A model generated the notes under the pieces. The model was not told the DNA's origin. It made no database searches and worked only from the letters and a program-made list of their open reading frames with translations. Below, in pieces: positions 1 through 25,152 of a DNA stretch of 64,000 nucleotides. The stretch lies in assembly GCF_054482595.1 (NCBI RefSeq), contig NZ_CM137008.1; one strand, written 5' to 3'. The position numbers were made by a program, and so were the translations under genes. How positions within the stretch are numbered: position 1 is the stretch's first letter; the number at the start of each line of letters is the position of its first letter.

Positions 1-439
<439 letters not shown>

Positions 440-508
440 TTAAATGGGAGATGTGGCCACAGCCTGCGACCACAGGGATACAGTAACAACATTACCGCAA
501 CGATAACA

Positions 509-1852
509 TTAACGGTAGCGTTTTATGGGGCTATTTTGATCCTGTTCAGCCAGCCAGGCGAGCTTTTCGCCAATCTTGCCTTCAAGGCCCCTGTTTGTCG
601 GGAAATAATAGCGTGTTTGTGCTATTTCCGGCGGGAAGTAAACCTCACCGGCAGCATAAGCGTTTGCTTCATCATGAGCGTAACGATATTCCTGCCCGTA
701 GCCCATTTCCTTCATTAATTTCGTCGGCGCATTACGCAAATGAACCGGCACGTCATAATCCGGGCGTTCGCGAGCATCGGCCAGCGCGGCTTTAAACGCA
801 GTGTAGACAGCGTTGCTTTTTGGCGCGCAGGCCAGGTAAACAATCGCCTGAGCAATGGCGCGTTCACCTTCCGCCGGGCCAACGCGAGTAAAGCAATCCC
901 AGGCCGCAATTGCCACCTGCATCGCCCGTGGATCGGCATTACCGACGTCTTCAGACGCAATCGCCAGACAGCGACGCGCGACATATAACGGATCGCCACC
1001 AGCGGTAATAATTCGCGCATACCAGTACAGCGCCGCATCGGGTGCGCTACCACGTACCGACTTATGCAGTGCGGAAATCAGATCGTAAAAGCGATCGCCT
1101 TTGTTATCAAAGCGGGCGCTACGTTCACCGGCGATTTCGGTCAGTAATTCAGGCTTCAGGACCCGCTTACCGCTATCATCGACTTCGGCCATATCCGCCA
1201 TCATTTCCAGCGTATTTAACGCCCGGCGCGCGTCGCCATTCACCAGTTCAGCAATGGCGCGTCGTGTTTCATCTGGCAGAATAATATCCTGACCACCATA
1301 GCCACGGGTTTTGTCTTCCATCGCCTGAGTTAGTACTTGCTCAATATCCTCTGTACTCAGGGATTTCAACAGATAAACACGGGCACGGGAAAGCAGTGCC
1401 GAATTAAGCTCAAACGACGGGTTTTCAGTGGTTGCGCCAATAAAAGTGATGGTGCCGTCTTCAATATGTGGCAGAAATGCATCCTGCTGGCTTTTGTTGA
1501 AACGGTGAACTTCGTCAACAAAAAGAATAGTGCGGCGACCTGCATTGCGGTTTTGCCGGGCGCACTCGATCGCCTCGCGAATCTCTTTCACACCAGAGGT
1601 GACGGCAGAAATACGTTCCACATCAGCGTTCGCATAGCGGGCAATCACTTCAGCGAGGGTTGTTTTGCCGGTACCCGGTGGCCCCCAGAGGATCATAGAA
1701 TGTAAATGCCCGGCTTCGATAGCGCGCGGCAACGGCTTCCCCGCAGCCAGCAAATGTTGCTGACCGATATACTGTGCTAAATTTTCTGGCCGCATACGCG
1801 CGGCCAGAGGTTGAAAAGTATTATCCGAAAAATCGAGCGACAGATTGCTCAC
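509..1852 (-). CDS. rarA: Recombination-associated AAA+ ATPase RarA/MgsA
   Basis: 447-aa ORF with Walker [12 protein letters not shown] and overall RarA sequence; conserved position between serS and lolA. Confidence 0.95.
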
Positions 1853-1862
1853 TCAGGTGCCT

Positions 1863-2474
1863 CTACTTACGTTGATCATCTACCGTGACGCCTTGCGGCG
1901 GGGTGAAGGTAAATTTCGCTGCATCCACAGCCCCATTTTGCTGGGATTTCAGTTGATAACTGCTGCGCTGATCGTCCTGCTCCACCGCGCTAAACTGATG
2001 GATTGTGCCATCACGTCCCACGTTAATGGTGAACTGCTTCAGATTGCCATTGCTGGCTTTCGGCGTCAGGACAAAGTCATCGCCATTCTGTTTGATATTG
2101 TACTGCTGCCAGTCGCTGGACTGGTTGCGGGCAATCAGCATAAACGGTGTATTACCGGTGACATCTTTCAGCCAGGTTGCCGTAGCTTGCTCAACGAACG
2201 GGTTATAGAACCACAGTGTTTTACCGTCAGAAACCAGAATGCTTTCATCAGGTTGAGTCATATGCCAGTTGAATAAGTTTGGACGTTTCACCCACAGATC
2301 GCCCTGACCTTCCTGCACCGCCGCGCCGCTACCGTCAGTCACTTTTTGTGTAAAGCTGGCGTGGAAGCTGCTGACTTTATCCAGGCGACTTTTCAGATCG
2401 CTTGCGGCATCAGCCCAAACGCTGCTTGCTACTAAGCTTGAGAGTAATGCACAGGTGATGGCAATTTTTTTCAT
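1863..2474 (-). CDS. lolA: Outer-membrane lipoprotein carrier LolA
   Basis: ORF matches LolA with signal peptide ([21 protein letters not shown]); ORF track starts one Met earlier at 2477. Confidence 0.93.
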
Positions 2475-2586
2475 CATTATTCCTCAAATTACGTCACTCC
2501 CGACCGGGAGTTCCCTCTACTCTCTATTCCAGGCTAATAATCAGCTTGAGGAAAGAAGAAAATACTGAATTTTCAGTTGATAGAGT

Positions 2587-2618
2587 GCCGGATGCGACGC
2601 TACCGCGCCTTATCCGGC
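2587..2618. repeat. REP (repetitive extragenic palindrome) element
   Basis: gccggatgcgacgctaccgcgccttatccggc: typical GC-rich imperfect palindrome of the E. coli REP family, in the lolA-ftsK intergenic space. Confidence 0.7.
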
Positions 2619-2628
2619 AATGCATTAA

Positions 2629-5600
2629 TTAGTCGAACGGCGGTGGGGCCAGCACTTCACGATTACCGTTGTGCCCCTGTTCGCTGACAATCCCCTGCGC
2701 TTCCATCTGTTCGATAATACGCGCTGCACGGTTATAACCAATGCGGAACTGACGCTGTACGCCAGAAATTGACGCTTTGCGTTTTTCAGTGACAAACTGC
2801 ACCGCCTGATCGAACAACGGATCCAGTTCTTCAGCGCCATCGAAACCACCCGCACCACCTTCGCTTTCGCTGTCGGAGGTGATGCCATCAACATACTGTG
2901 GGCGACCACGCGCTTTCCAGTCCTGCACCACGGCATGAACTTCCTGATCGCGAACAAAAGCACCATGGACACGTACCGGCAACGTGGAGTTCGGCCCAGA
3001 GTAGAGCATATCCCCCATACCCAGCAGTGATTCCGCGCCAGCCTGATCAAGAATGGTACGTGAGTCAATCTTACTGGATACGGTAAAGGCGATACGGGTC
3101 GGAATATTCGCTTTAATCAGACCAGTAATAACATCAACCGATGGACGCTGAGTTGCCAGTACGAGGTGGATACCCGCGGCACGGGCTTTTTGCGCCAGAC
3201 GTGCTATCAGCTCTTCCACTTTTTTACCTACTGTCATCATCAGGTCGGCAAATTCGTCCACCAACACCACAATGTATGGTTCTTTTTTCAGCACCGGATG
3301 CTGGGCATCCATACTGTCACCCGGCTTCCAGTACGGGTCTGGAATCGGACGCATCATGCGATCGGCTTCAGCAATTTTTTCGTTATAACCCGCCAGATTA
3401 CGCACACCCAGCGCAGACATCAGTTTATACCGACGCTCCATCTCGTTAACACACCAGCGCAGCGCGTTGGCGGCATCTTTCATATCAGTAACGACTTCCG
3501 TTAACAGGTGCGGAATGCCTTCATAAACCGAAAGCTCCAGCATTTTCGGGTCGATCATGATGAAACGCACATCTTCTGGCTGTGCTTTATAAAGCATGCT
3601 CAGGATCATCGCGTTCACACCGACAGATTTACCGGAACCGGTAGTCCCCGCAACCAACAAGTGCGGCATTTTCGCCAGATCGGCAACCACCGGCTCACCG
3701 GCGATATCTTTACCCAGCACCACGGTTAATGGCGACGGATTATCGCGGAATTTGGCGTTATCCAAAACTTCGCGCAGATAAACGGTTTGTCGTTTTTTAT
3801 TTGGTAACTCCAGACCTACATAGGGTTTGCCAGGAATAACTTCAACGACACGCACCGCCACCGTCGAAAGTGAACGGGCAAGGTCCCGTGACAAGTTAGA
3901 AATGCGCGCCGCTTTTACGCCAGGAGCCAGGTTAAGTTCAAAGCGAGTGATAACTGGCCCCGGAGAGTAATTGACGACATCGGCTTTAATACGGAAATCA
4001 GCCAGACGCGCTTCCACCAGACGCGCCATTTGTTCAAGCGCAAAGGTATCTACCGGCTCCACTTCGCTCGGCGGCGGTGTCAGCAAATCCAGAGAAGGCA
4101 GCGGCGTCGTCGGTTTGTGCAACGGACGGCTGTCGCCATTACGCATCAACAGCGGATGAAGCAGGGTATCCTGCGGCTGTGGCGCAACTGGCTGTTGTGG
4201 CTGCTGATACTGCGGCTGCGGTGCAACCGGTTGTTGCGGCTGTTGATACTGCGGCTGCGGCGCAACTGGTTGTTGCGGCTGTTGATACTGCGGCTGCGGT
4301 GCAACCGGCTGTTGCGGCTGCTGATATTGCTGCTGTGGCGCAACCGGCTGTTGTGGCTGCTGATACTGCTGCTGCGGTGCAACCGGCTGTTGCGGCTGCT
4401 GATACTGCGGCTGCGGTGCAACCGGTTGTTGCGGCTGCTGTACAGGTTCAACAATTGGCGTAAACAACGGTTCGTGTGGACCATCATCCAGCAACGCTTT
4501 CATTGGCGAAAATTCAAAATCATCCAGCGAGAACGGATTCGCCCCAGCCGGTTGTTCGCCGGAATAACGTTGTTGTTGAGTTTGCGCAAACTGACGAGCC
4601 AGTTCAGCCTCTGCCGCAGCATCTGCATCTTCTGCGTTTACGGGCACATCATGTTGATACTGTTCGCCATAGCGTTGCTGCTGTGTCTGGGCGAACTGAC
4701 GTGCCAGTTCATCCTGCTGCATCGCATCGATTTCATCATCGTTGTACTGATCGCCAGAATCGTACTGATTGCGCTGGGCTTCACGGGCTTTTTCTTCCGC
4801 CGCACGCTGTGAGGGCAGCTTAATACCGTAAGACGCCAATTCACGACGAGTTGGCACGCGGATACGTTTCGGTCGTGGCAACTGCGGGCCAATCCCCTCT
4901 TTGACCTGCGGACGCGGTCCACCGCTATTTGCCAGACTGAAGACTGGCGCGGCAACGGTTGCGGCAGCCCCCGTCGCCAGTGTCGCTTTTTTCACGCCAG
5001 ATGCCAGCGGAGAAACAGCGGCAGCGGCTTCTACTGGAGGTACTGCTGCAACAGAAGGTGCTTTCAGCGAAGATTTGATCGGTTCTGGTTCTTTAACCGG
5101 TTCTGGAATCGGTTGATACCAGGCCGCAAGTTGTTCACGTTCACGGGCTCGCTTCTCTTCCACTTCTTCAAAGTAGTAAAGCGGCGGACGCGCGGGTTTT
5201 GTCTCTTCTACAACGGGTTCAGGCTCCACAACAGGCTGCTGTTCAACAGGTTGCGGCTGTTGGTACAACGGCTCCTGAGCGGCTGGCTGCTGATAAGTTT
5301 GCTCAGTCTGGTATGTAGACTGTGGAGCAAAAGTGGATTGCTGCTCTTCGGCTTGCCAGGCGTTACCTGCCACCGGTTGTTCTGGCGCAGGGGCATAATA
5401 CGGCTGTTGCGCAGGCTGTTCCGGCGCAGTTGCGTAATACGGTTGCTGAACAGGTTGTTCCGCCGCAGGAGCGTAGTAAGGTTGTTGCGCAGGTTGTTCA
5501 GCTGCAGGTGCATAATACGGCTGCTGCGGCTGTACTGGTTGTTGCAGCGGCTCATTATATTGCACTGCAGGCTGCGCATATTGTGACTGCTGTGGGTAAC

Positions 5601-6735
5601 CTTCCGGTGCAGGAGCAATAACCGGCTCTCCCGTTTGTGGACCCGGTACAGGCTGCCAGGCTACTGTAGGTTGCGAAGGTGGAACATCAACAGAGGCAAC
5701 AGGCGGCGTCTGAGTCACAGGTTCAACCGGCGCAGCCCAGCTTTGTGTCGCCGTGGTAGCAGCAGCTGCTACAGCGACAGGTTCGGTAATTGGCGCACCA
5801 TTTAATAATGGATCGTATTCGTCATATTCTGGCTGCGTTGCACGATTGCCCGAAAATAGGACGTCGTCAGGGTCGGCAGCCACACCGCGTGCAGTGTAGG
5901 TAATATCTTCTTCATCATCCATCCGCTTACCGGAGAACAGCGCAGCATCTGTTTGCCGCCCCATCGGATTAATGAATTTTTCCGCCAACCGTTTACGACG
6001 CGCTAGCGCGCCGCGAAGAATACGGGCACGGCGTGATTCATGCTGTTTGCCGTGGTTTTCATCTTCATACTCTTCGTCATCTTCATATTCATCTTCATCG
6101 ACCCAGGTATCATCGCGACGGGTACGATTACTGGCGAAGGTGAGAATGTTTAAAATCCAGCCGCCGAGTTTTTCAGCAATGGTCACCCATGACCAACCGG
6201 TGAACAACGTCAGGCCCGCTGCCCAAACGCAGAGCAGCGCAATAGTTCCCCCGCTACTGTGTAGCAGTGGTTGTAGCGTAGTGCTTAGTAAGCTGCCAAT
6301 GACGCCACCGGAGGCAAAATACCAGATATCGTCAGCGTTGATTGCCGCCAGACCACAGGAGGTAAGGATGAGCGCCAAAACGCCAATGATGCGTAGCGAA
6401 ACGGCAAAATAATCAATGTATTCGTCGCTGGACTGATGACGCCAGGCAAACCAACAACCGCCGACAATAATGACGGGAATGGTGTAAGCCATCACGCCAA
6501 AAATAAAGAACAGCGTATCTGCCAACCACGCACCGGGCATCCCACCTAAATTATGGATAGGTTCATGCCAGGCCGTTTGCGACCAGCTGGGGTCCGAAGG
6601 GTTAAAGCTTAGTAAGGCAGCCATCAACCAGACGGCAAACAGGACAATAAGGATCAGCAACGCCTCCAGAAGGCGGCGGCCGCTACTTAACTTTGTCAAT
6701 GTGACTTCTTTGTCTTCAGTGTATTCCTGGCTCAA
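2629..6735 (-). CDS. ftsK: DNA translocase FtsK (1368 aa)
   Basis: N-terminus [23 protein letters not shown], membrane domain, long Pro/Gln-rich linker, C-terminal motor with Walker A GTTGSGKS and winged-helix gamma domain. Confidence 0.96.
4171..4443 (-). repeat. In-frame 39-bp tandem repeat (about 7 units) in ftsK linker, encoding [13 protein letters not shown] units
   Basis: Direct reading: ctgcggctgcggtgcaaccggttgttgcggctgttgata repeated head-to-tail with minor variants. Confidence 0.85.
5375..5530 (-). repeat. Second in-frame 39-bp tandem repeat (about 4 units) in ftsK linker, encoding [13 protein letters not shown]-like units
   Basis: Repeated ggctgttgcgcaggctgttccggcgcagttgcgtaatac-like units visible in sequence and in the translated protein. 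Confidence 0.75.
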
Positions 6736-6869
6736 GAAAGGCTCTCCAGGTTACAGGCTTTTCCTGCCCGATGCTAAAACGGACAACAGTACCAGGTTAC
6801 CCCAGTACTGTTGCTGTATGGATTAACAGGAGTGTAATCAAAATACGCCGATTTTGCACCTGTTCCGTG

Positions 6870-17726: not shown

Positions 17727-19673
17727 TTACTCTCGTGCCAGAGCATCTACTGGATCCAGTCGTGCCGCATTTCGTGCGGGTAACCAGCCAAATAAAATCC
17801 CGGTGGCCGTCGAGCAGAGAAACGCCAGCAGCAGTGCCAACGGTGAAAAACCAATCTCCCAACCGGGTAAGAAAAGCTGCAAGGTGAAAGCAATTAACAG
17901 TGACAGTGTTATTCCCAACGCGCCACCGACCAGGCAAACCAGTACGGCTTCGATCAGGAACTGTTGCAAAACATCGCTTGCTCGCGCACCTACAGCCATG
18001 CGAATGCCAATTTCCCGCGTCCGCTCGGTCACTGACACCAGCATAATATTCATTACACCAATACCGCCCACCACCAGCGAAATCACCGCCACCAGCGTCA
18101 GAAACAGTTGTAAAGTACGTGTGGTCTTTTCAACGGTTTTCAAGACGCCGTCCATGTTCCAGGTAAAGAAATCCTTCTTACCGTGGCGCAGTGAAAGTAA
18201 ACGCGTGAGTTGCTGTTCCGCCTCGGCGCTGTCAAATCCTTCTTTCACCCTGACAGTAATGGAGTTCAGCCACGACTGGCCCATAACTCGCCCGGACATC
18301 GTGCTGTAAGGTAGCCAGACACGCAGCACTTTACTGCTACCAAACATCGACTGTTTTTCTTCCGCCACACCAATGACTCTGGCGGGCATATTGCCGACCA
18401 GAATCACCTCGCCAACCACATCTGCTTTATGGGGGAAAAGCTGGCGGCGAGTATTACTGTCGAGAACCACGACCTGCGCACGACCGTTCAGCTGTTCCTG
18501 GTTAAAGGTGTTTCCTTCACTGAAGGTCATGCCATAGACATTAAAATAATCGCCGCTCACGCCATTGGCACTGGCAGCAACATCAACATTATTGTAACGC
18601 AGGCGCAGGTTTTGCGAGACGGCAGGTGTGGCTGAAGCGACCCACGGTTGTTTTTGGATGGCGATTAAGTCGTCGTACTTCAGCGCCTGCTGATATTGCG
18701 GATCGTCATCGCCAAAATCTTTCCCGGGGTAGACGTCAATAGTATTCGTACCAATAGAACGAATATCCGCCAGCACCATTTGTTTGGCGGCGTCACCTAC
18801 TACGACAATGGAAACCACCGACGCAATACCGATAATAATCCCCAGCATGGTCAGTAAAGTACGCATTTTATTCGCTGCCAGCGCCCGCCATGCCATCGTC
18901 AGCGCCTCGTTAAAACCGCTGGCAAACTGACGCCAGCCAGACGCCATGTTGACAACAGGTACCGTCCCGCCAGCAACATTCACTTTTTCAATGGCGGGAG
19001 GATTGCGCACAATTTCGCCGTCGCGAATTTCGATCACCCGCTCGGCCTGAGCAGCGACCTGCGGATCGTGGGTGACGATAATCACTGTATGCCCGCGGTC
19101 GCGCAGCTGATGCAGGATCGCCATCACCTCTTCGCCAGAATGGCTGTCCAGTGCGCCGGTCGGTTCATCGGCAAGAATTACCTGACCGCCGTTCATCAAT
19201 GCCCGCGCGATGCTGACGCGCTGTTGCTGACCACCCGAAAGCTGTGCCGGATAATACTCTGTACGGTCTTCCAGCCCCAGTCGTTGCAGCAACTCCTGGG
19301 CGCGAAGCAACCGCTGTTTCCGCTCAAGACCAGCATAGACGGCGGGTACTTCAACGTTCTGCTCGGCGGTTAAATGCGAAAGCAAATGGTAACGCTGGAA
19401 AATAAAGCCGAAATGCTCGCGGCGCAGTTGCGCCAGCGCATCGGCGTCCAGCGTGGCAACATCCTGACCGGCGACGCGATAGGTGCCGCTGGTGGCCTTA
19501 TCCAGACAGCCGAGAATATTCATCAGGGTCGATTTACCGGAACCCGAAGCGCCAACAATCGCCACCATCTCACCAGCATAAATATCGAGGGTGATGCCCT
19601 TCAACACCTCAACCTGCTCATCACCGGCAGGATAGCTGCGACGAATATCCTTTAATTCGAGCAAAGGCGTCAT
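17727..19673 (-). CDS. macB: Macrolide/peptide ABC exporter MacB (ATPase plus permease)
   Basis: 648-aa ORF, N-terminal NBD ([19 protein letters not shown]) fused to FtsX-like permease; overlaps macA stop by 4 bp. Confidence 0.95.
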
Positions 19674-20785
19674 TGTGCAGCTCCTGGTTTGGCCTCACCA
19701 ATCACCACTTCATCGCCCGCTTCCAGCCCTTTGACAATCTCAACATCGGTATCGTTACGTGCGCCAATCGTCACTTCACGCTCGCGTGTTTCACCATTAC
19801 GCAACAATTTGACTTTATAACGATTATCGCCAACCGGATCGCCTAACGCCGACAGAGGGATCGTCAGCACATTTTTCACATCGGTGAGCTGAATATGCAC
19901 TTGCGCAGTCATATCCAGCCGCAGTAAACCATTGGGGTTGGGGACTTCAAAACGGGCGTAATAGAAAATAGCGTCGTTAACCTTTTCCGGCGTCGGTAGT
20001 ACATCCTTGATTTGCCCCTCGTAGCGCGTCAGTGGATCGCCAAGTACCGTAAACCAGGCTTTTTGCCCCGGCTTCAGGTGGATTACATCCGCTTCAGAAA
20101 CCTGCGCTTTTACCAGCATGGTGCTCATATCTGCCAGCGTCAGAATGTTCGGTGCTTGTTGTGCGGCAATCACCGTCTGGCCTTGCAGAGTGGTGATTTG
20201 CGTGACTTCCCCGGCCATCGGGGCAACGATGCGAGTGTAATCGAGATTGGTTTTAGCCGTATCGAGAGAAGCCTGATTGCGCTTGATTTGCGCGTCAATG
20301 GTGCCAATTTGCGCCTGTTTCACAGCCATCTCCGTCGCGGCGGTGTCGAGATCCTGCTGTGAAACCGCCTGCGTTTGTGCCAGACGTTGCTGACGGGAAT
20401 ACGTCACCCGCGCCAGTTTCAGCTCCGCTTCCGCCTGCTGCCGCTGCGCGCGTAGCTCCATCAGCGTTGCTTCGACCTCCTTGATCTGGTTTTCAGCCTG
20501 TTCAGGATCAATGACCCCTAAAAGCTGGTCTTTTTTTACTTTATCGCCAATCGCCACCGACAGTGTTTTCAACTGACCGCTGACCTGCGCGCCCACATCA
20601 ACCTTACGCAGCGCGTCCAGCTTTCCGGTCGCCAGCACGCTTTGCTGTAAATCACCGGGGCGCACAATCAGTGTCTGATAAGTCGGCACGGGTGCGTTAA
20701 GAATTCTCCATAACGTAATCAGTCCGGCGATGGCTATCACCAGCGCAATAACGTAACGCTTCTTCACGGTTTTCCGCTTTTTCAT
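19670..20785 (-). CDS. macA: Membrane fusion protein MacA
   Basis: ORF matches MacA ([26 protein letters not shown]...); start trimmed from the ORF-track extension. Confidence 0.93.
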
Positions 20786-20899
20786 AAATATTCTGAATAC
20801 TCCATATGCCAATCCGGGTCATTAACTTCAACGAAATATCAACAAAACCCTAAAATTTACGTTAGTAATCACACTATTGATGTTTGGTTAAGATACGCA

Positions 20900-21892
20900 A
20901 TGGTGAAATCGACGTCATGTATAACCATTGATTTCATGAATATGTCGCAGCTAACTGAACGGACCTTTACGCCATCTGAATCTCTCAGCAGCCTGTCACT
21001 TTTTCTTAGTCTGGCACGTGGACAGTGTCGGCCGGGTAAATTCTGGCATCGCCGTAGTTTTCGCCAGAAATTTTTGCTGCGCTCGTTGATTATGCCGCGT
21101 TTAAGCGTTGAGTGGATGAACGAACTTTCCCACTGGCCTAATCTCAATGTATTGTTAACGCGCCAGCCGCGACTGCCTGTACGTCTGCATCGCCCTTACC
21201 TTGCGGCGAATCTTAGCCGTAAGCAATTGCTGGAGGCGTTACGTTACCATTATGCGTTACTCCGCGGGTGTATGTCGGCGGAAGAATTCAGCTTATATTT
21301 GAATACCCCCGGGCTGCAACTGGCGAAGCTGGAAGGCAAAAACGGCGAGCAGTTCACGCTTGAGCTGACCATGATGATCTCAATGGATAAAGAAGGTGAC
21401 AGCACAATCCTGTTCCGCAACAGCGAAGGTATTCCTCTGGCAGAGATCACGTTTACCCTGTGTGAATATCAGGGGAAAAGAACGATGTTTATTGGCGGAC
21501 TGCAAGGCGCAAAATGGGAAATCCCACATCAGGAAATCCAGAATGCGACGAAAGCCTGCCACGGGCTATTTCCCAAACGCCTCGTGATGGAAGCGGCCTG
21601 TCTGTTTGCCCAACGTTTGCAGGTAGAGCAGATTATTGCCGTCAGCAATGAAACGCATATTTACCGCAGCCTGCGTTATCGCGATAAAGAAGGCAAGATC
21701 CATGCCGATTACAACGCTTTCTGGGAATCGGTTGGCGGCGTATGTGATGCTGAACGCCATTACCGCCTTCCAGCACAGATAGCACGAAAAGAGATTGCCG
21801 AAATCGCCAGTAAAAAACGGGCTGAATACCGTCGGCGCTATGAGATGCTCGACGCTATTCAGCCACAAATGGCCACGATGTTTCGCGGTTAA
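20900..21892 (+). CDS. ybjX: VirK/YbjX family protein (DUF535)
   Basis: 330-aa ORF at the conserved ybjX position, divergent from macAB; exact start uncertain (alternative ATG at 20942). Confidence 0.85.
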   Translation: MVKSTSCITIDFMNMSQLTERTFTPSESLSSLSLFLSLARGQCRPGKFWHRRSFRQKFLLRSLIMPRLSVEWMNELSHWPNLNVLLTRQPRLPVRLHRPYLAANLSRKQLLEALRYHYALLRGCMSAEEFSLYLNTPGLQLAKLEGKNGEQFTLELTMMISMDKEGDSTILFRNSEGIPLAEITFTLCEYQGKRTMFIGGLQGAKWEIPHQEIQNATKACHGLFPKRLVMEAACLFAQRLQVEQIIAVSNETHIYRSLRYRDKEGKIHADYNAFWESVGGVCDAERHYRLPAQIARKEIAEIASKKRAEYRRRYEMLDAIQPQMATMFRG

Positions 21893-23547
21893 TCCGCGCG
21901 ACCGCGCGCCAGCCACAGCACGCGTGAGAACATTTTTTTCAGCAGCGTCGGTACGGAGTCCACACCACGACGTCCGGCCTCCATTGCCACTTCAATGGCA
22001 AGATCGGGTTTGGAAGAGCGATGGATCGCTTTCGAGATAATTTTGCGCAGATTCATCGGTACATTTTCCGGGATTTGCGCCACGCGGTGGAACACATCGG
22101 AAAATCCCTGGCGATACATAAAATGTTCCATATCCAGCGCCGGTAACGCCGTTAAATGTTCTCGTTCGGCTTCCCGATCATTATTCAACAGGCTGCGTAC
22201 CGTAGCGGCATATTTCTTCCCTGCTTCATCGCCATCGACCAGCACATGCCATTCAATCCCCATTCGGCGGGCAAATTTAACCAGTGGCTTTAGCCCGGAC
22301 TGGGCAAACTCAATGACCTTGATCCCTTCGGCATCAAAATGATGTCCGCACTGACACGCCAGTTCATTGATAACCCAGGTTTCCGTTTCCCCTTCCACCA
22401 GCAACCAGCAGCGAGCAAACAGCGATGACGGACGATTAAAACGAATGTGAAAAGAGATGCGGCGGCTGTCTTCGGTGCTCAAGCCACTTGGCCCCAGACG
22501 CCAGGCGGCAACACGAGAAGATTCACGCACCAGGCGGCAAACATGTTCCACTGGAGTTAACGAAAGCAGCTCGCCAGAGTTGGTGGTAGCAATACGTTGT
22601 AAAGGCAAAAGATTCAACAGATGCCAGGCAACTGAAAGCATAATGGGGTGTAAACGCGTTTCTGGATCTTCGATCAGCAACAATGGACGGGCGTCTTTAT
22701 CCAGTCGCAATGTGCCTTTTGCCTGCAATAAAGTAGCAAACAGGCCGAGCAAAATAACCCGATACGAGCGCCCTCCAGGTCGGTCAATCATCCGGTTGAT
22801 GATGTCCAGATAGCGCCAGCTTCGTTGCTCATTGCTGGCCCGCCGCCGCATTAAACGATATCGCGCCTGTCCAGCCCCCTGCTCAGAGAAATAATGCTCA
22901 AGCAGCTGCACCATTGCGGAAAGTCCCTGACGAATCTGTCCATCAGAGAGATTTTGCGGATGTGAGGACAACTCACGGGCGAGGAAATCGAGCTGGCGCG
23001 CGGTGACTTCCACATTGGGGACATTTGGCACCGTGCCGTTACGAATACGGCGCATAAAACGGGCATCACGCAAGCGCAGCACCGGCATTAAACGCACCAG
23101 ATGGCGTGCCTGATCGTTAATATCCTCAACATCAATCGGATGTCCGTCTTTATCGAGAAAACTGCGCAGTGTCATCACGCTGCCGTCTTCCGCACTCTCC
23201 CCTTCCAGACGATAAAAAATACGGTGATAGCCATCGGCGCATGGCGTCCAGCACGCTTCCAGCGGCCGATAACGGCGAACCCGATGTCGGCCTGGCAGCG
23301 ATTCGCGGAAGGTCAAAATAATATGCAGATGATGTTCTCGCCCGTTGATATCTCCCGGCGGGAACCAGAAATCGTCGCGCTCAAAATGGTAGAGATCTGA
23401 TTCTGGCGATAGCAGCAGGGTTAAGGCGTCCAGCAAGCTGGATTTACCCCACGCGTTCTCCCCAATCAGGACGTTGTTTTGTTCCAGCATCAACGACAAA
23501 CGGTTGATACCGCGAAAACCCACAATTTCAACGCGCTCAAGAATCAT
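21889..23547 (-). CDS. ybjD: OLD-family ATP-dependent endonuclease-like protein (AAA ATPase plus Toprim)
   Basis: 552-aa ORF, N-terminal Walker A (GENAWGKSSLLDAL), matches YbjD; convergent 4-bp overlap with ybjX. Confidence 0.92.
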   Translation of the reverse strand: MILERVEIVGFRGINRLSLMLEQNNVLIGENAWGKSSLLDALTLLLSPESDLYHFERDDFWFPPGDINGREHHLHIILTFRESLPGRHRVRRYRPLEACWTPCADGYHRIFYRLEGESAEDGSVMTLRSFLDKDGHPIDVEDINDQARHLVRLMPVLRLRDARFMRRIRNGTVPNVPNVEVTARQLDFLARELSSHPQNLSDGQIRQGLSAMVQLLEHYFSEQGAGQARYRLMRRRASNEQRSWRYLDIINRMIDRPGGRSYRVILLGLFATLLQAKGTLRLDKDARPLLLIEDPETRLHPIMLSVAWHLLNLLPLQRIATTNSGELLSLTPVEHVCRLVRESSRVAAWRLGPSGLSTEDSRRISFHIRFNRPSSLFARCWLLVEGETETWVINELACQCGHHFDAEGIKVIEFAQSGLKPLVKFARRMGIEWHVLVDGDEAGKKYAATVRSLLNNDREAEREHLTALPALDMEHFMYRQGFSDVFHRVAQIPENVPMNLRKIISKAIHRSSKPDLAIEVAMEAGRRGVDSVPTLLKKMFSRVLWLARGRAD

Positions 23548-23972
23548 ATCCCCTCCAGAAATATGTGACTTATCCTTTACGCTGGCAGTATAACGGGAAA
23601 GGCCTTGCTAATACGTGATGACATCACATTTAAGCATGGCAAATGTCTGAAAAATGAGCGAATAATCGCGTTATACTCCCTCTTGCTGATAAGTCTGCAA
23701 AAACAACAAAATCAAATAATTAGCATGATAAATTATTTTTTATTACGCCTAAAGGATTAAATCTTTTGCTTGCACTACACTGTCAATCAGACAAATGACT
23801 ATATGGGGCAACCCGCTGTTGCCCTAAATCAAATTTACTGGATTTATTTATCTGGTGAATGACTCGCCTTCGTTTTTAAAATAGCCGCGCATTATTTCCG
23901 TCGTCACTTTTTTACGACGACCCTATAAAACGACCATATTTTTCACAGGGTCAATTTTTAATTGAGGTGGAT

Positions 23973-24668
23973 ATGTTCAGAAAATTAGCAGCTGAATGTT
24001 TTGGTACTTTCTGGCTTGTTTTTGGTGGCTGTGGTAGTGCTGTACTGGCCGCAGGCTTCCCGGAATTAGGCATTGGTTTTGCCGGCGTGGCGCTGGCATT
24101 CGGTTTGACCGTTCTGACGATGGCCTTCGCTGTTGGTCATATTTCTGGTGGTCATTTTAACCCGGCGGTCACTATTGGTTTATGGGCTGGCGGACGTTTT
24201 CCGGCAAAAGAAGTCGTTGGCTACGTAATTGCCCAGGTTGTCGGCGGTATTGTTGCAGCGGCGCTGCTGTATTTAATTGCCAGTGGTAAAACGGGTTTTG
24301 ACGCGGCAGCCAGCGGTTTTGCTTCTAACGGTTATGGCGAGCATTCACCAGGCGGTTATTCCATGCTTTCCGCGCTGGTAGTTGAACTGGTATTGAGTGC
24401 AGGTTTCCTGTTGGTGATCCACGGCGCAACCGACAAATTCGCTCCGGCAGGTTTTGCGCCGATCGCTATTGGTCTGGCCTTAACCCTGATTCACTTAATC
24501 AGTATTCCGGTGACTAACACTTCTGTTAACCCGGCGCGCAGCACCGCGGTTGCCATCTTCCAGGGCGGCTGGGCATTAGAACAACTGTGGTTCTTCTGGG
24601 TGGTGCCAATTGTCGGCGGCATTATCGGTGGTCTGATTTACCGGACCCTGCTGGAAAAACGTAATTAA
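23973..24668 (+). CDS. aqpZ: Aquaporin Z
   Basis: [27 protein letters not shown]..., two NPA motifs (HFNPAVT, NPARS); ORF-track start 23967 is an upstream GTG. Confidence 0.96.
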
Positions 24669-24677
24669 TTAACGCAG

Positions 24678-24706
24678 AAGGCCTGGCGCAATGTCAGGCC
24701 TTTTTT
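24678..24706 (+). terminator. Rho-independent terminator after aqpZ
   Basis: ggcctggcgcaatgtcaggcc hairpin followed by tttttt. Confidence 0.75.
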
Positions 24707-25152
24707 AAATATATTGATTCATCTTCCTGTTGCGCTCCTTGATGTGTTAAGCCACATATAGTCACTGGCGCAGGGAGCGCGCAGGGGGCGGCCAATCGCC
24801 GCCGCCCCCTGCACCCCCGGGCTCTGGCGAACAAAATCGCCGCTGCGCGGTACCCTCAGCTTATCCCTTGCGGCTACCGGGTCGGGCGCGAGGTAACATC
24901 CCTGTAAAACGCGCCCTCAGCCCACATCCATGTGGGCTGCCCCGGCCTTCAGGGAACGCCTCGGCGATTTTGACGCCACCAACACCGGTGCGGTTTGTAA
25001 TTAAAGAGCAAGAATATCTTTAAATGAAAATGAATACCCTACCGATCCTTATGCATAACATTTCCTTTTAATTGCAACTTTACTCGTCCTTCCGCTTTCA
25101 GTAGTGTGTCATCGCGCATTTCGACTTCTTTCTTTGCAAGGGCTGGGTTTTC

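Follow-up and report, generated by a model that had tools for sequence, protein, structure and literature searches.

YbjD, an OLD-family protein of the Escherichia coli core genome with a tightly conserved predicted nuclease site

What is the only OLD-family (overcoming lysogenization defect) gene fixed in the Escherichia coli core genome selected to do? OLD proteins are now read almost entirely as phage-defence effectors, and this gene, ybjD, long stood among the wholly uncharacterised genes of E. coli. We examined ybjD in a window of 64,000 nucleotides (the whole stretch of DNA that was analysed, from contig NZ_CM137008.1 of RefSeq assembly GCF_054482595.1), where it occupies positions 21889–23547 on the minus strand. 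We infer, at about even odds (a probability of roughly 0.5), that YbjD is kept by selection for a nuclease-dependent host function and that the anti-phage effect reported on overexpression is a side effect, because the gene is universally present in fixed synteny, occurs neither in phages nor at full length on true plasmids, is under purifying selection at a housekeeping level and keeps an invariant nuclease site.

An earlier note on this DNA, made from the sequence without database searches, had assigned the product to the OLD family, with an ABC-type ATPase followed by a Toprim nuclease, and Pfam, PADLOC, a profile search of the Protein Data Bank (PDB) and fold comparison all agree with that assignment. 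The gene, E. coli b0876, encodes 552 amino acids beginning MILERVEIVGFRGINRLSLMLEQNNVLIGENAWGKSSLLDAL in the list of open reading frames. Its parts are given below with window coordinates, strand and evidence; the main references are the OLD proteins of Thermus scotoductus (Ts OLD) and Burkholderia pseudomallei (Bp OLD).

21889–23547, minus strand: ybjD (oldB) coding sequence, 552 codons plus stop (open reading frame list and translation; RefSeq 'ybjD: ATP-dependent endonuclease'; Pfam)
22423–23547, minus strand: N-terminal ABC-type ATPase region, residues 1–375 (Pfam DUF2813, AlphaFold2 (AF2) model, profile alignment)
23440–23463, minus strand: Walker A motif or P-loop, GENAWGKS, residues 29–36, with G29 and K35-S36 (sequence, conservation)
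22660–22683, minus strand: Walker B region, LLLIEDPE, residues 289–296 (profile alignment to 6p74)
22576–22587, minus strand: H-loop position, T321-T-N323-S324 (alignment to 'STHSP' of Ts OLD and GajA)
22147–22422, minus strand: Toprim core, residues 376–467 (Pfam OLD-like_TOPRIM, alignment to Bp OLD, conservation)
21892–22146, minus strand: C-terminal helical domain, residues 468–552 (putative metal-B ligands D472 and E474, catalytic-type K513)

Pfam places DUF2813 at residues 1–375 (E = 2.6e-160, far beyond chance) and OLD-like_TOPRIM (PF20469) at residues 376–440 (E = 1.5e-15), with the P-loop families AAA_15, AAA_21 and SMC_N matching at the N-terminus; NCBIfam gave sub-threshold P-loop matches only. 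The best PADLOC models were GajA (3.4e-79) and Old (8e-24), and a YbjD family profile searched against the PDB retrieved Ts OLD (1.9e-21) and GajA (2e-19), aligning with residues 1–433 and 1–384, respectively. An AF2 model built from a 67-sequence alignment (mean predicted local distance difference test (pLDDT) 85, predicted template modeling score (pTM) 0.83) contains an ABC ATPase interrupted by a helical region at about 160–280, partly of low confidence, in which helices span residues 177–195, 202–220, 241–255 and 260–277; this insertion is a probable dimerisation domain. A four-stranded Toprim fold follows in the model (strands 380–384, 409–413, 432–437 and 465–467, with an extra helix at 458–464), and then three long C-terminal helices (473–490, 500–527 and 534–549). 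Foldseek against the PDB ranked GajA first (E = 8e-19, template modeling (TM) score up to 0.59) and Ts OLD after it (2.6e-17, TM 0.45), then the retron Eco8 OLD protein, PtuA and Rad50/SMC. YbjD is an intact OLD-family protein that joins an ABC ATPase to a Toprim predicted nuclease, and its identity is not in doubt.

The two active sites can be read against characterised relatives. The Walker A string given earlier, GENAWGKSSLLDAL, corresponds to residues 29–42, and the motif is indeed present as GENAWGKS. K34, E276 and H310 of Ts OLD are each needed for ATP hydrolysis, and H-loop Asn substitutions have been noted in some OLD homologs (Schiltz et al. 2020, PMC7049728); in our profile alignment to 6p74, E293 of YbjD falls on the catalytic E276, and Asn323 stands where both Ts OLD and GajA have a catalytic His. 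At the nuclease site, VEGETE (E385/E389) lies over VEGDAE of Bp OLD (E400/E404) and DGD (D438/D440) over DLD (D455/D457), so that E385, D438 and D440 are putative metal-A ligands and E389 a putative metal-B ligand. D472-x-E474 comes directly after beta4, as does T506-x-E508 in Bp OLD, and K513 sits within a long helix, as does K562.

Across the alignment (67 YbjD family members, 27–91% identity), 17 columns are invariant, all of them within residues 362–514. The catalytic Toprim residues have not been lost: E385, E389, D440, E474 and K513 are kept in 67/67 sequences and D438 and D472 in 66/67. At the ATPase site, the Walker A lysine K35 is kept in 60/67 (R in six, S in one), with G29 and G34 each in 66/67; Walker B E293 is kept in 60/67 and E296 in 63/67; and position 323 is His in only 10/67, being N in 40, Q in 10 and Y in 6. 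From these counts, and from the equivalence with K34, E276 and H310 of Ts OLD, we conclude that the nuclease site is guarded more tightly than the site of ATP hydrolysis. The overexpression phenotype has the opposite requirements: the strongest constraint lies on the nuclease site, yet the only published phenotype is nuclease-independent. If that tension holds, YbjD would be a tractable case, in a model organism, of an immune-type nuclease that serves or has been recruited to a host function.

Selection on the gene was measured as the ratio of non-synonymous to synonymous substitution rates (dN/dS; Nei–Gojobori), comparing the window with orthologs from Escherichia, Citrobacter, Intestinirhabdus and Silvania. 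Overall dN/dS of ybjD was 0.018–0.054, at or below the values of macA, macB, aqpZ, lysO and hcp in almost all comparisons and well under that of ybjX in each. Within the gene, the Toprim core (residues 376–450) had the lowest values in most comparisons (0.003–0.02), while the helical stretch midway through the ATPase region had values among the highest (up to 0.11).

The description of ybjD as a conserved single-gene backbone locus was borne out. Of 5426 complete E. coli genomes, 5424 contain at least 80% of the gene, nearly all of them once (median 1, maximum 2 places per genome). In a wider survey with one genome per GTDB species, at least 494 relatives were retrieved, and the best 80, which were analysed, are all from Enterobacterales. 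Identity follows phylogeny, from 97–98% in Escherichia through about 90% in Citrobacter and 84–86% in Klebsiella and Enterobacter to 64–68% in Pectobacterium, Serratia and Hafnia. Searching the 80 loci with the window neighbours (tblastn) showed that the order hcp-lysO(ybjE)-(aqpZ)-ybjD-(ybjX)-macA-macB is kept as far as Serratia and Hafnia; aqpZ, absent in Pectobacterium and Serratia, and ybjX are less stable than ybjD itself. RefSeq genes within 9 kb on each side are all housekeeping genes (ybjT, ltaE, poxB, hcr, hcp, lysO, aqpZ, ybjX, macAB, cspD, clpSA and infA), with no helicase, integrase or defence gene annotated on either side. More distant homologs, at 34–45% identity, occur in Vibrio, Motilimonas, Chitinilyticum and metagenomes; those on long contigs stand alone among housekeeping genes such as hslUV/argS, cysS/nrdAB or macAB-OEP/tig-clpPX, and two further contexts on short contigs likewise contain no helicase. 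A Gabija-type helicase partner is ruled out by the RefSeq annotation and by all the homolog contexts examined.

Mobile genetic elements yielded no counterpart. By tblastn, no copy was found in phages, where the sole match was a 2-kb fragment of host DNA, and in the plasmid collection true plasmids carried no full-length relative, only partial OLD matches at 24–31% identity; full-length matches came only from records that in fact represent chromosomes or chromids. These results rule out a mobile origin, and ybjD is vertically inherited at one chromosomal position across Enterobacterales.

Two sets of database records deserve comment. In the E. coli and plasmid collections, ybjD-ybjX also turns up at >99% identity in a few records labelled 'plasmid' (0.07–4.9 Mb), which look like mislabelled chromosomal contigs and not like mobilised copies. 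The locus labelled E. coli SCPM-O-B-8794 shows synonymous divergence of 0.25–0.49 from the window in all genes, far above what is typical within E. coli, and this GTDB representative probably belongs to a cryptic Escherichia clade and not to E. coli proper.

Part of this picture is already known, since earlier papers describe the gene, assign it to its family and report first phenotypes. YbjD was the seed of a survey of OLD homologs in which the E. coli and Salmonella proteins were placed in 'Class 1', that of isolated genes (Schiltz et al. 2019, PMC6755086). A micropublication of May 2026 (PMC13261556) renamed the gene oldB, also placed it in Class 1 and reported that it is expressed and non-essential, the Keio deletion having unchanged susceptibility to 68 BASEL phages. 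Induction from pBAD-ybjD at a non-toxic 0.001% arabinose lowered plaquing of Bas18 and Bas20 and shrank the plaques of Bas64–68. These phenotypes survived both point mutation of the three acidic residues in the Toprim domain and removal of residues 378–552, and were abolished by deletion of the ATPase half; the K35A variant kept the phenotype and was more toxic (PMC13261556). Toxicity was RecBC-independent, and recBC(ts) cells were not killed, unlike with P2 Old (PMC13261556). The statement in the earlier note that the gene has no known function is therefore out of date, and the question that it left open, a role in defence, has been addressed in part: deletion gives no phage phenotype, and overexpression gives a weak, Toprim-independent effect (PMC13261556). 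New here are the modelled Class 2-type C-terminus without a helicase, vertical inheritance throughout the order, the asymmetry of conservation between nuclease and ATPase, and the absence from phages and lack of full-length copies on true plasmids.

Our favoured reading is that YbjD may act as a nucleotide-gated, two-metal nuclease. ATP bound at a degenerate ABC site, with Asn for the H-loop His, would restrain the protein and not power turnover, which fits the K35A variant (more toxic, still active), the H-loop Asn and the precedent of the ATP-inhibited GajA (via PMC13261556). Once the restraint is lifted, the site formed by the Toprim and helical domains would nick or cut nucleic acid. DNA is the most probable substrate, because the closest structural match, Bp OLD, is a DNA nuclease. 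The selected role would be a nuclease-dependent host function in genome maintenance or constitutive surveillance of nucleic acids, and the Toprim-independent anti-phage effect on overexpression would be a side activity of the ATPase and DNA-binding half.

Several points weigh against this reading. The only experimental phenotypes of YbjD are anti-phage and nuclease-independent, and the literature consulted yielded neither a biochemical activity of the protein, its substrate (DNA or RNA) and ATP gating being deduced, nor a repair or growth phenotype of the deletion. The putative match of D472, E474 and K513 to T506, E508 and K562 of Bp OLD draws on position and invariance. The ybjD–aqpZ intergenic region has no match to the SOS operator pattern CTGT-N8-ACAG with ≤1 mismatch, and SOS control of ybjD was rejected. 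An immune role would still be compatible with a core chromosomal position.

That immune role is the most serious competitor: YbjD could be a dedicated single-gene (Class 1) protein that senses infection and stops phage growth, possibly through abortive toxicity, with the ATPase half as effector and the nuclease as an auxiliary or kept for other phages. The effects on Bas18, Bas20 and Bas64–68 that need the ATPase domain are the sole experimental phenotypes (PMC13261556), the characterised bacterial OLD classes in the cited literature (P2 Old, Vc OLD, GajA, retron Eco8 and PARIS) are all defensive, and GajA models give the strongest PADLOC matches. We nevertheless think it unlikely, though far from negligible, since deleting the gene left susceptibility to 68 phages unchanged (PMC13261556), the gene is universal, single-copy, syntenic, missing from phages and without full-length copies on true plasmids, unlike known defence genes, no diversifying selection was seen at dN/dS values of 0.02–0.05, and the best-conserved part of the protein is the part dispensable for the phenotype.

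The same nuclease site might instead be directed at RNA, cutting tRNA or other RNA or acting in RNase M5-like processing, for translation shutdown under stress or for RNA maturation. P2 Old cuts the tRNA anticodon arm (PMC12445682), AriB cuts tRNA (PMC12409363) and the active site of OLD proteins mirrors the one in RNase M5 (PMC6755086); against this stand the characterisation of Bp OLD, the closest structural match, as a DNA nuclease, the RecBC-independent toxicity of YbjD, unlike that of P2 Old, and the lack of any direct pointer to RNA in the present data, and we consider an RNA substrate improbable. Still less credible is the view that YbjD is a relic in decay, left from an ancient Gabija-like system after loss of the helicase and of any selected function. 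Such a relic would agree with a Class 2-type C-terminus without a helicase, with a deletion that has no phenotype and with ATPase motifs that are degenerate in part of the family, but it is effectively refuted by the selection data (dN/dS 0.02–0.05); the gene is also expressed (PMC13261556), its frame is intact in 5424/5426 E. coli genomes and in all 80 Enterobacterales orthologs retrieved, and the nuclease residues are invariant even at 27–45% overall identity. 

Returning to a nuclease-dependent host function, we would tentatively go further, on a proposal that we hold to be somewhat more doubtful than sound: the YbjD/DUF2813 clade may be a domesticated OLD nuclease whose Class 2 (Gabija-type) ancestors shed the helicase and gave rise to a non-immune housekeeping enzyme, passed on vertically in Gamma- and Betaproteobacteria, with a selected function that needs the Toprim domain, for example processing of aberrant DNA in replication, repair or chromosome maintenance.

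At its two ends, ybjD is bounded by the following elements.

23550–23557, minus strand: predicted Shine-Dalgarno-like sequence TGGAGGGG, 2–4 nt before the ATG (read off the sequence as the reverse complement of cccctcca)
21889–21892, both strands: TTAA common to the convergent stops of ybjD (minus) and ybjX (plus) (sequence; RefSeq)

The putative ribosome-binding site is of the GGAGG type and lies 4 nt upstream of the ATG. At the other end, the stop codons of ybjD (21889–21891) and ybjX (21890–21892) share 4 bp, the convergent overlap given in the earlier note, and the identical overlap is annotated by RefSeq in strain XH990; ybjD-ybjX has been listed among convergent excludons (PMC12288877). 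A scan of 21500–24100 for the sigma-70 consensus found no site (2.9 expected by chance), and no promoter could be assigned. An Rfam scan of 20500–25200 gave one sub-threshold match, outside ybjD, and thus no structured RNA in the gene. That match, to TwoAYGGAY (31.5 bits against a gathering threshold of 43, E = 0.042), lies between aqpZ and lysO/ybjE (24834–24973, minus strand) and, instead of that RNA, may represent a repetitive extragenic element. The only zero-mismatch CTGT-N8-ACAG palindrome of the window, the LexA-box-like CTGTATGGATTAACAG, is far from ybjD (6814–6829, plus strand); judged by its map position, it is presumably the SOS (dinH) promoter of ftsK.

The neighbour ybjX (VirK/YbjX family; 20936–21892, plus strand) evolves far faster than the genes around it and has a patchy distribution. 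Klebsiella, Raoultella and several other genera lack it; in most Citrobacter and Enterobacter its identity is only 46–66%, against 84–91% for YbjD there; and ybjX reaches a dN/dS of 0.27 against C. sedlakii. It lies on the opposite strand between ybjD and the co-directional macA and macB (window 17727–23547), and in Enterobacterales without it (Klebsiella/Raoultella) macA-macB follows about 80–250 bp after ybjD on the same strand. Next to a metagenomic homolog of 34% identity, the order is macA-like, macB-like and OEP, and the DUF2813 gene begins 1 nt past the stop codon of OEP (positions 332–6644 of that sequence). This recurrent adjacency of DUF2813 and MacAB genes, in two arrangements, could reflect old synteny or a functional link.

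DUF2813/OLD proteins of 800–1867 amino acids also exist, with large insertions in the ATPase region and long unannotated C-terminal extensions. One example has its Walker A segment in residues 1–54 and resumes the domain after residue 630, and one of the long genes adjoins an unannotated gene of 1020 amino acids and polA (positions 392–4360 of its own sequence). Fusion of OLD to a helicase was considered for these long proteins and rejected, as Pfam finds no helicase domain in them.

Set beside the known systems, YbjD is Class 2-like by structural criteria, as judged from the model, and Class 1 by gene context. Its modelled C-terminal architecture is of the type of the Class 2 OLD and GajA proteins (B. 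pseudomallei OLD, 6NK8; Bacillus cereus GajA, 8SM3 and 8X5I), although the sequence of YbjD shares only 13–21% identity with the GajA and Bp OLD proteins of solved structure. In Gabija, a gene for the UvrD/PcrA-like helicase GajB adjoins gajA, whereas none lies beside ybjD or any homolog examined; Gabija genes are patchy and mobile, whereas ybjD is chromosomally fixed. The Class 1 proteins (P2 Old; Ts OLD, 6P74; and the Vibrio cholerae protein Vc OLD) are encoded by lone genes and have the same domain order as YbjD. In keeping with a context-based definition of that class, no UvrD/PcrA/Rep-like helicase, retron reverse transcriptase or separate AriB was found beside ybjD in the 80 Enterobacterales loci or the distant homologs. 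The structural definition, taken from Ts OLD, points the other way: Class 1 proteins lack the Insert 3 helix and the C-terminal helical domain (PMC7049728), and the model of YbjD contains helix 458–464 as well as three long helices at the C-terminus. The earlier note, which named P2 Old and Gabija GajA as family members tied to defence, needs refining here: YbjD is not simply P2 Old-like, and the modelled C-terminus resembles GajA and Bp OLD, without the helicase. A 'Class 1' label given by context can thus hide an architecture of Class 2 type, which affects the counts of single-gene OLD systems made by defence finders. P2 Old kills recBC cells and YbjD does not; YbjD is also neither phage-borne nor strain-variable, and the general hallmarks of defence genes (patchy distribution, location on islands or mobile elements, rapid evolution) are not seen in ybjD.

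Two further comparisons reach beyond defence. The N-terminal P-loop of YbjD matches models and structures of the ABC ATPases SMC, RecF, Rad50 and RecN, but these matches mostly cover the first ~60 residues or the general ABC fold, and those proteins have no Toprim domain. The archaeal OLD-family ATPase Cran1, for which PMC12796447 reports a housekeeping role for the host in the cell cycle and none against viruses, offers a precedent for a non-immune OLD protein. Cran1 is essential as well as archaeal, whereas ybjD is non-essential. Were YbjD a domesticated, non-immune nuclease, it would be the first bacterial counterpart of Cran1.

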